Below, piece after piece: positions 30,001 through 33,000 of a stretch of 64,000 bases of DNA (position 1 is its first letter; each line of letters starts with the position of its first letter). Position numbers: made by a program. Source of the stretch: Candidatus Babeliales bacterium (GTDB lineage: Bacteria; Babelota; Babeliae; Babelales; JBFXEV01). The stretch lies in contig JBFXEV010000001.1 in the NCBI GenBank assembly GCA_050179755.1, positions 969,994 through 1,033,993 of the forward strand. The letters run 5' to 3'.

Positions 30001-33000
30001 CTTGCACAACCACAGGTGACTGCAGCAAAAGAAGTTCCTGCTCCAGAAACAAAACCTGCACAAGCGCCCGTTGCAACCTCTGCACCAGCAGCGCAAGCTC
30101 AAGAATCGTTACTTGATACTATTGATATAGAAGAGGGTGGCAATTGGGTGCTTAAGCGCAAAGCATTGCAAGACACGGTACGAAAAATTGAAGACATCAA
30201 TGCGTTGTATGATGATATTCGCGATACCAACATTGTGTTTTTACAAGGCATTAATACCGTGGACGTGTTGTTTACACAATTTAGTTATGATGTTGGCTTA
30301 GATCTTGGTAAAGTCGATCAATTAGTGCAAGACGTATTGCATCATCTTGAATCTGAGCGTGAAGAAACTGGCGATTTAAGTGAAGCCGAACGTGATATTT
30401 TGCAAAAAGCCGAAGATCGTAAAAAAGAAGTTGAGCAATTGCGCACTAATATTCATGACATATGGCAAGCATATGCGCAACTTAAAGAAGCGCGCATGCT
30501 TAATGATGAACAAATTATTGAAGCAGATAGAATAAGGAAGCAAGCATGGCGGAATTTCCGCATGATCGAGCGTGTTTTAAACGAAGTAAAAGCGGAAGAG
30601 CTATACCATGAAACGGTACAATTATTTGAAGCACTGCAAACCAGTTATCGTTATCTGCAAACGCGTTTGATTCCGCATTTTGAACAGTCAATTAAAACGA
30701 TTCAAGAGAAAATGCAAATGGCCAAAAAGCAATCAGAAGAATTGCAAAGCCAGGGCGTACTCTTGAAAGAAGAAGCCATTATTGTGGATAAATTGGAAAA
30801 AGATCAGTCAGTAGATCAAGATCAGATGCAAGCTCCTGCGCCAACTGGCTGGCTTACGCGGATTAAGAATGTGCTTCTGTCCCCGTTCCATGCACTGGGT
30901 TCTCTTTGGGGTTGGATTACTGGATCATCAAGCGATATGAGGAAGTACTTGCCAGAAGAGCAAGAATTATCTGAAAATCATGAATCTAAGCAACCAGAAG
31001 AGCTTTAATCAAGTCACCTCTCTACACAAGCAACTACGTTTTTTAAAAAATTAAGAAGGGCATTCACTGTAAAAAGTATTGCCCTTCTTAATTTTTAGTT
31101 GAAAAAAGTCGATTGATATGCTACATTTGGTTGCATGTTACTTGCCGAGGTGGTGAAACTGGTAGACACGCAGCGTTAAGGGCGCTGTGAGGATTCCTCG
31201 TAGGGGTTCGAGTCCCCTCCTCGGCACCAGTCTTTGCTCCTACGGAGCAAATTCTGGCAAGCCAGTCTCTTAAGTTTTCGTGGCAGGCTAAAATAAAAGT
31301 TCATTTGAGTAAGAAGTTTTCAACCTAAAAGGATTTATCATGACGTCAACAATGCGTAACGTATTTTCACCATTTTGGGGTTGGGTAGCAGCAGCTATCG
31401 CAATTTGCATTTACTTATTTACTTTTAATGATAATTGGCGCCCTGTGTTGCGTGAAAACAAGGTAAATTTTGGTATTGATTTGGTTGGTGGCACCTATAT
31501 TCGTCTGAATGTAGAAACGGATAAAGCAGTTGAAGTTGAGTTAAACGATAAAGCACAACAAATTATTAACCGTTTGGAAGAAAAAGAACTTTCAGCGCCT
31601 GTTTCACGCAAAATTGAAAATAACGTAATTTCTTTTTCATTTGATTCATTAGATGCTGCGCAGCGAGCGCATGATCTTATTAAAGAACAAATGGCAGATG
31701 TAGTTGTAGCCCAAGATCAGCAGCAAGTTATTGTGCGTTTGCGCGATAGTCAGATTGAACGTATTAAAGCAGATGCAGTTACTGGCAATATAGAAGTGCT
31801 TCGTAATCGCCTTGATGCTATTGGGGTGGGTGAAATTACTATTGCTCAGCAAGGTGCACATGGCATTCTTATTGAACTACCAAACGTAGATGATCCGCAA
31901 AAAGCAAAAGCAATGATTGGCAAAACTGCGCAACTTGAATTTAAGTTGGTAGTGGCTGAAGCTGCTACTGAAGATCAAATACTAGATAAATATGATGGTG
32001 AACTGCCTGATCATCTTGAAATTGTACATGATGCAAAAGATCGCAGATTTTACGCTGTTGAGCGTTATGCAGAAGTTGCAGGGCGTGACGTGCGCAATGC
32101 ATTTGCAGCTCCTGGTGGCAAATCTGGTACTGACATTGTGGTGAACTTTGAATTAAAGCCAGAAGGCGGCGAACGTTTTTATGAATTAACGCGTAAAAAT
32201 GTTGGCAAAAAATTGGCAATTATTGTTGATAACTCAGTGCTTTCAGCGCCGAATATTTCACTGGGCATTCGCGATCAAGGATATATTACCGGTGGGTTTA
32301 GCCTTGATTCTGCAAAAGAGCTTGCAACCATGATTAAATCGGGTTCCTTTGTGGCGCCCGTTACGTTTGAAGAAGAGCGCCAAGTAGGGCCGTCACTTGG
32401 TCAAGAATCAATCCGTAAAGGCTTGCTTGCATGTGGGCTTGCATTGGCGTTGCTTGCTATATTTGGCGTGCTAATTTATAAAATGGCTGGTTTCTTTGCT
32501 GTGCTTGCATTGGCATTTAACTTACTTTTAATGCTTGCAATACTTTCATGGCTTGGTGCAACACTTTCATTGCCTGGGATTGCTGGTATGGTGCTTACTA
32601 TTGGCATGGCAATTGATGCTTCTATCTTGATTTATGAAGGTATTAAAGAAGATTTGGCTGCAGGAGTTACGCCACGAAAAGCTGTAGAAAAAGGCTTTAG
32701 TGATGCTATGGTGGTTATTTTAGATTCTAATATTACCACGTTCTTAATGGGTATCGTTCTTTACAAATTTGGATCAGGCCCTATACAAGGATTTGCAGTA
32801 ACTATGATGGTAGGTATTATTTCTACCCTTCTTACTGGATTGTTCTTTTTGAGAGCTACACTTAATTATTATTTAATTAATTTAGGTGTTCAAAAGCTTA
32901 GTATTTAGGTATACTAATAATATCTGTCTGAAGGCCTTTTAGACTATAGAAAGTTGCCTGGCCTTTTCAGATAATAACTTTGAATAAACGGCGACGTAGC

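Follow-up and report, generated by a model that had tools for sequence, protein, structure and literature searches.

The tRNA-Leu(AAG) gene and its surroundings

We analysed a window of 64,000 nucleotides from the genome of a Candidatus Babeliales bacterium (G000 in our genome set). Its forward strand carries a class II tRNA-Leu gene of 86 nt with an encoded CCA (31144..31229). ARAGORN placed the anticodon at gene position 35, and the sequence there reads AAG (31178..31180), with A34 at 31178. The anticodon arm reads CAGCG UUAAGGG CGCUG (31171..31187), which gives a G31-C39 pair, U32, G37 and G38. The genome is closed (one contig of 1,525,295 bp or 1.53 Mb, GC 39.1%), and the leucine anticodons among its 34 tRNAs are CAA, AAG, TAG and TAA only: tRNA-Leu(GAG) is absent. 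ARAGORN, Rfam and the full tRNA set of the closed genome thus bear out the survey's finding of a class II tRNA-Leu(AAG) without a tRNA-Leu(GAG). By the survey's account Rfam had overlooked the gene; its tRNA model RF00005 in fact scores 48.9 bits here, the gathering score being 29.

The survey also called this tRNA the sole reader of CUU and CUC. The Pro and Ala boxes of the genome each contain one U34 (UNN) tRNA. Four-way reading by U34 is thus in use, which makes tRNA-Leu(UAG) a plausible back-up reader for CUU and CUC, and we dropped the words "sole reader". The remainder of that interpretation, a recurrent switch with several tRNA bodies and no codon shift, was upheld.

Downstream of the tRNA lies secD (31340..32908, forward strand; Pfam SecDF_P1_head, SecD_1st and SecD_SecF_C). 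A secD homologue directly follows the tRNA-Leu gene in 53 of 53 loci examined, showing that the switches between G34 and A34 are point changes in place. Upstream, a consensus scan found a promoter-like site on the same strand, TTGAAA-17-TACATT, whose second hexamer is preceded by TG; it ends 17 nt before the tRNA (31099..31127) and is a candidate only, as the scan returned 3 sites versus 1.2 expected. Two further forward-strand features were recognised by eye. One is a putative terminator past the upstream gene and ahead of the tRNA promoter (31050..31096), made up of a 13-bp inverted repeat and a stretch of T after it; with a loop larger than 8, it fell outside the terminator scan. The other, a putative 8-bp hairpin, begins 4 nt past the tRNA (31233..31251).

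Exchange of AAG and GAG across the order

We typed tRNA-Leu in the 261 genomes of the order by sequence patterns, a D-arm pattern and ARAGORN, the latter two catching genes with a GAGTTCGAGTCTC T arm. AAG was found in 71 genomes and GAG in 174, while 16 stayed untyped; the AAG state is therefore that of G000 and about a quarter of its relatives. A single AAG genome, G161 (6% contamination), also had a GAG-like gene. The best 30 BLAST loci comprised 8 AAG and 22 GAG genes. The survey had counted 11 and 19 in a different sample of 30.

Both states occur within four families and two genera, which requires at least 7 changes by taxonomy alone; the TadA tree requires 11–12. The survey had deduced at least two switches, AAG genes built on different tRNA bodies and one GTDB family with both types. 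All three claims hold, three anticodon-stem types being seen, and the G34-to-A34 switch is far commoner in the order than previously stated. The AAG state can also be stable, since some families are wholly AAG (12/12 genomes in f18, 4/4 in f20 and 3/3 in f4). tRNA-Leu(AAG) would have arisen where it now lies, by a point change that turned G34 at the wobble position into A34.

A decaying or silent gene copy, or a sequencing error, is hardly credible as the source of the AAG anticodon: the gene folds into an intact cloverleaf and encodes CCA, AAG is fixed in whole families, there is no GAG gene that could take over, and synteny and the promoter-like site are conserved. The best explanation is that it encodes a functional tRNA-Leu and is orthologous, by position, to the relatives' tRNA-Leu(GAG).

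The deaminase and the anticodon arm

The genome has one TadA-like gene (C1:1447338-1447811, minus strand). Two other deaminase-fold genes were rejected as TadA, one being a lumazine-binding/RibD fusion and the other a cytidine deaminase, in line with the single TadA of the survey. The protein has the deaminase fold, about 160 aa and intact HAE and PCxxC zinc motifs. It matches Pfam PF14437 at 114.7 bits and PF00383 at 106.8 bits, and its best solved relatives are TadAs (7cph, 2b3j, 1wwr and 2nx8); the NCBIfam equivalog NF008113 gave 105.8 bits, below its cut-off of 150. TadA is kept in 253 of the 261 genomes of the order, with tRNA-Arg(ACG) alongside.

We compared the RNA-contacting residues in 121 typed genomes. 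R76 and R100, which correspond to the RNA contacts Arg70 and Arg94 of Staphylococcus aureus TadA, are invariant (121/121). S. aureus Asp104 is described as contacting the ribose of U33 and Lys106 the 32-38 pair (PMC3711424). The G000 enzyme has Ser110 and Leu112 at these sites; position 110 is Ser in 117 of the 121 genomes and position 112 is Leu, Ile or Val in 106, with Lys in just one. Among the 150 best TadA representatives, the Ser and Leu form fills the closest ranks and Asp with Lys dominates past rank 50. These atypical residues occur equally in AAG and GAG genomes and so cannot alone mark editing of tRNA-Leu. S. pyogenes TadA, which has Asn at the Asp104 site, is reported to edit tRNA-Leu(AAG), unlike E. 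coli TadA (bioRxiv 10.1101/2023.09.19.555891).

Does the enzyme change with the switch? The large AAG clade shows raw residue differences at TadA positions 111, 118 and 153, where the G000 enzyme keeps GAG-like residues. Some Babelales TadAs might accordingly edit fully and others partly, leaving a mixture of A34 and I34 in cells. Mycoplasma capricolum TadA has Ser at the Asp site, which its authors read as a weakened enzyme (PMC3711424), and this would also fit incomplete editing and tells against I34 in general. The raw differences, however, are phylogenetic and vanish in independent pairs: none of 10 columns showed a change accompanying the switch, in a test that is weak because only 4 pairs lie on well-supported branches. 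We consider such partial or lineage-dependent modification quite unlikely.

The anticodon arm of G000 is shared with G121, of the same genus, and with G169 and G170 of family f19. In the 79 genomes with a full arm read, G38 was present in 46/46 AAG genes versus 8/33 GAG genes, and C31 in 1/46 versus 27/33; the majority of GAG genes have U38 and C31. Reading position 38 by eye in 63 AAG genes, with genes typed solely by the D-arm pattern left out, we found G in 62 and A in one. A formal independent-pair test for covariation of position 34 with 38 and 31 was non-significant, with just 3 well-supported pairs. In our preferred reading, A34 would be tolerated solely on anticodon arms that already have a purine at 38 and lack C31.

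The same covariation could equally fit ribosomal tuning of an unmodified A34. The tRNA would then read CUU by Watson-Crick pairing and the other CUN codons poorly, tRNA-Leu(UAG) would cover CUC, CUA and CUG by four-way U34 wobble, and G38 and U31 would tune ribosome binding of the weaker anticodon. This explanation would account for a switch that comes without a TadA change, and it fits the loops of the two tRNAs: as the survey had it, Leu(AAG) (UUAAGGG) and Arg(ACG) (CUACGAA) share only positions 33, 34 and 36, and differ at four of seven (32, 35, 37 and 38). Against it, at least 62 of the 63 AAG genes have a purine at position 38, and to our knowledge so does every known TadA substrate. In its favour, the Leu and Arg loops of S. 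pyogenes differ at just 2 positions (bioRxiv 10.1101/2023.09.19.555891), and E. coli is reported to tolerate unmodified A34 tRNAs of four-codon boxes (bioRxiv 10.64898/2026.05.15.725136).

Codon use and the reading of the CUN box

Crude ORF calls gave 14,565 CUU and 4,007 CUC among 46,977 leucine codons in G000, reproducing the survey's counts within 2%. Ten pairs of AAG and GAG genomes, each with 724–1,249 leucine codons, showed no shift in leucine codon use (all Wilcoxon p > 0.27; UUA 0.28, CUU 0.63, CUC 0.56), confirming that the switch leaves codon use as it was. GC drift was rejected as a driver, because the AAG partner had the higher GC in 6/10 pairs, which is no trend.

An unmodified A34 is compatible with CUU being the main CUN codon of G000 (57.7% over the whole genome, 73.5% in 29 genes of the translation apparatus), with the Pro and Ala boxes noted above and with the presence of a tRNA-Leu(UAG) in G000 and of a UAG-type match in most AAG genomes. 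Indeed, with four-way U34 reading in use, inosine is unnecessary for reading CUC. Against an unmodified A34, AAG genomes show no shortage of CUC compared with their GAG sisters or with other NNC codons, and in two AAG genomes (G225 and G204) the codon makes up 19.3% and 15.2% of leucine codons. In G000, CUC/(CUU+CUC) is 0.216, inside the range of other boxes. The C fraction of CUY drops from 0.216 to 0.128 in the 29 translation-apparatus genes; that of Arg CGY drops alike, from 0.495 to 0.302, but so does that of Gly GGY, and the comparison thus does not tell A34 from I34.

Two AAG genomes bear more directly on the question. G126 (95% complete, 35 tRNAs by Rfam) and G128 (94% complete, 33 tRNAs) have leucine tRNAs CAA, UAA, AAG and CAG only, with no detectable Leu-UAG, yet CUA makes up 12.0% and 10.4% of their leucine codons. 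If the absence is real, inosine would be required. In many other genomes of the large AAG clade, AAG, CAG and UAG tRNAs occur together; these two apparently have AAG and CAG only. An assembly gap may explain why G126, G127 and G128 show no Leu-UAG. In their sister G125, the Lys(CUU)-Leu(UAG) tandem shares a contig of 3.2 kb with an adjoining multi-copy gene for a large protein, and this flank gave no orthologous place in G126–G128 at which to look for a deletion scar. The GAG control G176 likewise shows no Leu-UAG, in a genome where only 27 tRNAs were found. BLAST proved unreliable as a test of absence: G016 and G087 seemed empty yet carry the gene, and G079 was weak by BLAST but has a pattern match.

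According to PMC13249217 and bioRxiv 10.1101/2023.09.19.555891, I34 is present in every tRNA-Leu(AAG) that has been tested in bacteria to date. In a comparison with 31044-31329, contigs from two sludge RNA-type runs (small shares) cover the tRNA at depth 2–3.4, one extending into its flank, with no differing letters listed; as contigs they cannot show editing.

Taken together, the evidence leans to I34, and we regard an unmodified A34 as rather doubtful. Judged from the gene sequences, A34 of tRNA-Leu(AAG) is fairly likely to be deaminated to inosine by the single TadA, and an anticodon that starts with A probably works here only because the editing enzyme makes it inosine. The resulting tRNA-Leu(IAG) would read CUU and CUC, and CUA weakly; tRNA-Leu(UAG) would read CUA and CUG. 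The switch would be nearly neutral and reversible in the order because this TadA lacks the side chains contacting U33 and the 32-38 pair, and because Y-U-A-M-G-R-R describes the loops of Leu (UUAAGGG) and Arg (CUACGRA) alike. A broader reading joins these points and is tentative: the TadA of the order may be naturally relaxed through loss of the Asp and Lys contacts and take any Y-U-A-M-G-R-R loop, so that tRNA-Leu could switch from GAG to AAG or back no fewer than 7 times at no cost in codon use, and one genus might now read CUN in a eukaryote-like manner with IAG and CAG, having lost tRNA-Leu(UAG).

A second lineage with tRNA-Leu(AAG)

Bacteria very seldom have A34 tRNAs besides tRNA-Arg(ACG). 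A recent study assigns nearly every tRNA-Leu(AAG) gene to the class Bacilli (PMC13249217), and our literature searches on the lineage and on A34 and TadA, supplements aside, found no report of one in this phylum. The closest likeness is to the Lactobacillales, where TadA edits tRNA-Leu(AAG) to IAG (Oenococcus oeni, Streptococcus pyogenes, S. mutans and S. pneumoniae). Here as there, a class II A34 tRNA-Leu stands in place of tRNA-Leu(GAG), never with it, and tRNA-Leu(UAG) is retained; the genome is AT-rich; and the single TadA carries another residue in place of the Asp that contacts the U33 ribose (Asn in S. pyogenes, Ser here). The Babelales differ in belonging to another phylum, in the additional loss of the Lys contacting the 32-38 pair, and in G38, where the S. 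pyogenes consensus YUAMGRA has A38 (bioRxiv 10.1101/2023.09.19.555891). According to PMC13249217, the state is fixed per family in Lactobacillales, with a gain of CUU and CUC over UUA, whereas the Babelales show many flips within one order and no such shift. For the Babelales, inosine is a prediction.

The Mollicutes use unmodified A34 tRNAs, such as tRNA-Thr(AGU), and even an unmodified tRNA-Arg(ACG) where TadA is lost or degenerate. Common to both groups are A34 in a four-codon box, a small AT-rich genome and four-way reading by U34, and Ser at the Asp104 site is shared with M. capricolum (PMC3711424). In contrast, the Babelales have kept TadA together with tRNA-Arg(ACG), and their A34 tRNA is a tRNA-Leu. 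The large AAG clade, with its ANN and CNN tRNAs, resembles eukaryotic decoding by ADAT2/ADAT3 and tRNA-Leu(IAG), except that there is a lone bacterial TadA-type gene with no ADAT3-like partner and a single extra substrate.

The Babelales are thus a second, unrelated lineage of a kind known from Lactobacillales. Since sister species, even of one genus, can differ in their state, the order is a natural experiment with many replicates. It bears on what TadA requires to accept a second substrate, on a possible gating of this step by position 38 and the 31-39 pair, and on whether an IAG tRNA drives synonymous recoding, of which this order shows none.

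The tRNA-Leu(AAG) gene and its genome

On the forward strand of the window, positions 31144-31229 hold a tRNA-Leu whose anticodon ARAGORN reads as AAG. The survey had recorded this gene as missed by Rfam, but it matches the Rfam tRNA model from end to end with 48.9 bits (gathering score 29). The gene encodes a class II tRNA including the CCA end, and its anticodon arm reads CAGCG UUAAGGG CGCUG. Upstream, a promoter-like site (TTGAAA-17-TACATT) stops 17 nt short of the gene, and secD lies downstream. By all sequence criteria it is a real gene with a predicted functional product. 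The segment at 31033-31112, upstream of the tRNA, is a terminator-like hairpin; its weak Rfam match to mir-786 (28 bits, gathering score 93) was rejected as a chance match. Two tRNA-Met(CAT) genes are found at 20199-20275 and 32990-33066, the second directly after secD. The str, S10, spc and alpha ribosomal-protein operons reach into the start of the window (1-9831; G000:C1:960584-979824, G000 being the genome that holds the window), as assigned from gene order, gene sizes and the GHVDHGKT motif of EF-Tu, with a family scan for S10 only.

The genome assembly consists of one contig (1,525,295 bp, GC 39.1%), in which ARAGORN detected 34 tRNAs. The leucine anticodons are CAA, AAG, UAG and UAA, and neither tRNA-Leu(GAG) nor tRNA-Leu(CAG) is among the 34. 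Arginine is served by ACG, UCG, UCU and CCU, and proline and alanine by one UNN tRNA apiece. Three genes have a deaminase fold. One encodes a 158-aa protein whose top NCBIfam match is TadA, the tRNA adenosine(34) deaminase (105.8 bits, below the equivalog cut-off of 150), and whose top solved relatives are TadAs. The other two are a lumazine-binding/RibD fusion and a cytidine deaminase; thus, the genome has one TadA.

Anticodon changes across the order

We compared AAG genomes with GAG genomes, which carry A34 or G34, respectively, in the orthologous tRNA-Leu. In all 53 loci for which flanks were available (the top 30 by BLAST plus 23 AAG loci found by pattern search), the next gene downstream of the tRNA is a homologue of the window's secD. 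This shared position makes the AAG and GAG genes positional orthologues, and the switch is a point change rather than a gene replacement.

We typed this tRNA in the 261 genomes of the order, which fall into 21 coded families. Searching for AAG with a loop-plus-T-arm pattern gave matches in 52 genomes, 48 of which were accepted as carrying tRNA-Leu from the matched strings; the remaining matches resemble tmRNA, tRNA-Cys or other sequence. For GAG, the corresponding pattern was found in 163 genomes, or 159 without the 4 that had only false or doubtful matches (the visual check covered all but 26 of the match rows). Seven genomes with a BLAST match and neither pattern were assigned with ARAGORN (4 AAG, 3 GAG), and a D-arm pattern gave 19 AAG, 12 GAG and 16 without a match among the other 47. 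In total, 71 genomes are AAG, 174 are GAG and 16, mostly less than 90% complete, are untyped. At least 71 such genes, including the one in the window, exist in the order.

AAG extends across whole or nearly whole families (f1, 2/2; f4, 3/3; f6, 6/7; f13, 1/1; f15, 5/6; f16, 2/2; f18, 12/12; f20, 4/4). Four families hold both states, with AAG in 1/41 genomes of f2, 24/35 of f17, 2/8 of f19 and 9/80 of f21, as do the genera g82 and g132. Provided that every coded family and genus is a clade, parsimony would require at least seven anticodon changes: f17 and f21 account for two apiece and f2 and f19 for one apiece, and the seventh falls between pure families. A quickly built maximum-likelihood tree from 123 TadA proteins calls for 11-12 changes, five of them forced by well-supported branches. 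Families f4, f6, f13, f16, f17, f18 and f20 fall together beyond one well-supported branch (47 AAG and 9 GAG proteins), and the GAG members of this group are nested within f17. One old gain of AAG and several reversals, with separate gains elsewhere, are suggested; the direction of each change (gain or loss) is tentative, as the tree is unrooted and comes from a short protein.

One genome alone, G161, carries an AAG gene together with a GAG tRNA-Leu of very different body on another contig (G161:C7 and G161:C22; loci L211 and L212). This second tRNA-Leu may be foreign (contamination 6%). Two AAG genomes of genus g114, G204 and G205, differ in the anticodon stem (GGCAG in one, GGCTG in the other), reflecting either two origins inside one genus or gene exchange.

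The full anticodon arm was read in 79 genomes. Among 46 AAG genes, 41 combine U31-G39 with G38, 4 combine G31-C39 with G38 (family f1 and genus g91 of f19) and 1 has C31 with G38. The 33 GAG genes comprise 23 with C31 and U38, 4 with C31 and G38, 4 with U31 and G38, and 2 with U31 and U38. Apart from the single AAG gene with C31, the intermediate arms are seen only with G34; A34 together with U38 was found in none of the 79. In f17, where GAG forms sit within groups of AAG relatives, the arm of these GAG forms is CUGCC UUGAGGU in 6 genomes and CUGCU UUGAGGG in 2. Hand counts of the pattern matches listed gave G38 in 62 and A38 in 1 of 63 AAG genes, and G38 in 47 and U38 in 107 of 154 GAG genes. 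An independent-pairs test of position 34 against the arm had 3 usable pairs and was not significant; no pair ran in the opposite direction.

TadA and its putative substrates

Among 150 tRNA-Arg(ACG) loops listed for the order, a hand count gave about 119 CUACGGA and about 31 CUACGAA, with C32 and A38 in every one. From their loop sequences, both putative TadA substrates, Leu and Arg, fit Y-U-A-M-G-R-R, one position off the consensus YUAMGRA of S. pyogenes. At position 37 of tRNA-Arg(ACG), about four-fifths of the genes listed have G and the others A; A37 is somewhat more frequent in AAG genomes (12/34 versus 19/116 in GAG genomes; hand counts, uncorrected for kinship).

We mapped the TadA of the window's genome onto S. 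aureus TadA by alignment, using its numbering and the RNA contacts listed in PMC3711424. The residues corresponding to Arg70 and Arg94 do not vary among the 121 typed genomes compared. According to that paper, Asp104 bonds to the ribose of U33, and Lys106 contacts the C32-A38 pair and is conserved in every TadA its authors examined (PMC3711424). Here the Asp104 equivalent is Ser in 117/121 genomes and Cys in 4/121, and the Lys106 equivalent is Leu, Ile or Val in 106/121 and Lys in 1/121. These replacements are common to AAG and GAG genomes alike. In the best 150 representatives out of 1.84 billion proteins (a library without taxonomy), the Asp site holds D in 57, S in 56 and N in 22, and the Lys site K in 78 and L in 32. 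The top 25 have Ser (24/25) and Leu (19/25), and those past rank 50 have mainly Asp and Lys. The Ser-plus-Leu form is thus probably a mark of this lineage.

Among solved TadAs, the Asp site is Asn in S. pyogenes (2nx8) and Asp in S. aureus, 7cph and A. aeolicus. Wulff et al. report that tRNA-Leu(AAG) is edited by the TadA of S. pyogenes and not by that of E. coli (bioRxiv 10.1101/2023.09.19.555891). The residue at the Asp site may be tied to substrate range. The evolution in the laboratory of a TadA that edits DNA reportedly began with Asp108Asn. In four genomes, the TadA match contains a single in-frame stop: TGA in G098 (L081) and G101 (L077), TAG in G235 and TAA in G031.

Inosine or unmodified A34

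In 1,317 crude open reading frames covering 88% of the window's genome, CUU accounts for 14,565 and CUC for 4,007 of 46,977 leucine codons, close to the survey's counts. The CUC/(CUU+CUC) ratio of 0.216 is within the span of the remaining U/C pairs (0.146-0.498). CUU makes up 34% and CUC 5% of leucine codons in 29 translation-apparatus genes (5,162 codons). Ten AAG/GAG pairs, taken within genus or family where possible (about 40 kb per genome, 29 kb for G234), showed no consistent difference in any leucine codon or in CUC against control NNC codons (all p > 0.27). These better samples confirm the survey's claim that leucine codon use has not shifted, unlike in Lactobacillales. CUC reaches 19.3% and 15.2% of leucine codons in the AAG genomes G225 and G204.

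Gene content gives an argument for inosine. Within the large clade, tRNA-Leu(CAG) is present in many of the AAG genomes as well. Two genomes, G126 (95% complete, 35 tRNAs) and G128 (94% complete, 33 tRNAs), have leucine anticodons CAA, UAA, AAG and CAG; tRNA-Leu(UAG) was not found in either, using full Rfam tRNA lists and ARAGORN on each class II gene. CUA nevertheless makes up 449/3,739 leucine codons in G126 and 515/4,929 in G128. With only the AAG and CAG tRNAs on hand for CUA, reading it would need inosine at position 34 (I34). The sister genome G127 (84% complete, 31 tRNAs) lacks tRNA-Leu(UAG) and also UAA. BLAST found a Lys(CUU)-Leu(UAG) tandem in G125 and G138 and not in G126 to G128. 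The same tandem is present in the window's genome, and tRNA-Lys(CUU) is absent alongside tRNA-Leu(UAG) in G126, G127 and G128. However, the G125 tandem sits on a 3.2-kb contig beside a multi-copy gene, so assemblies may miss it, which weakens the argument for I34. It is weakened further by three GAG controls that looked empty for tRNA-Leu(UAG) by BLAST: the gene is in fact present in two, and it was not found in the third, G176, where 27 tRNAs were detected. Two sludge runs have contigs over tRNA-Leu(AAG), which are uninformative on editing.

Taken together, the mechanism with the best support is inosine formation by a TadA whose RNA contacts are unusual, and we hold it to be reasonably probable. 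An A34 that stays unmodified, with tRNA-Leu(UAG) as back-up, is a less probable but serious rival. A tRNA-Leu(AAG) of this kind was already known from Lactobacillales. New here are the lineage itself, the number and reversibility of the switches, and the changes coupled to them at positions 31 and 38. The TadA motif found across the order and the lack of any codon shift are likewise new.
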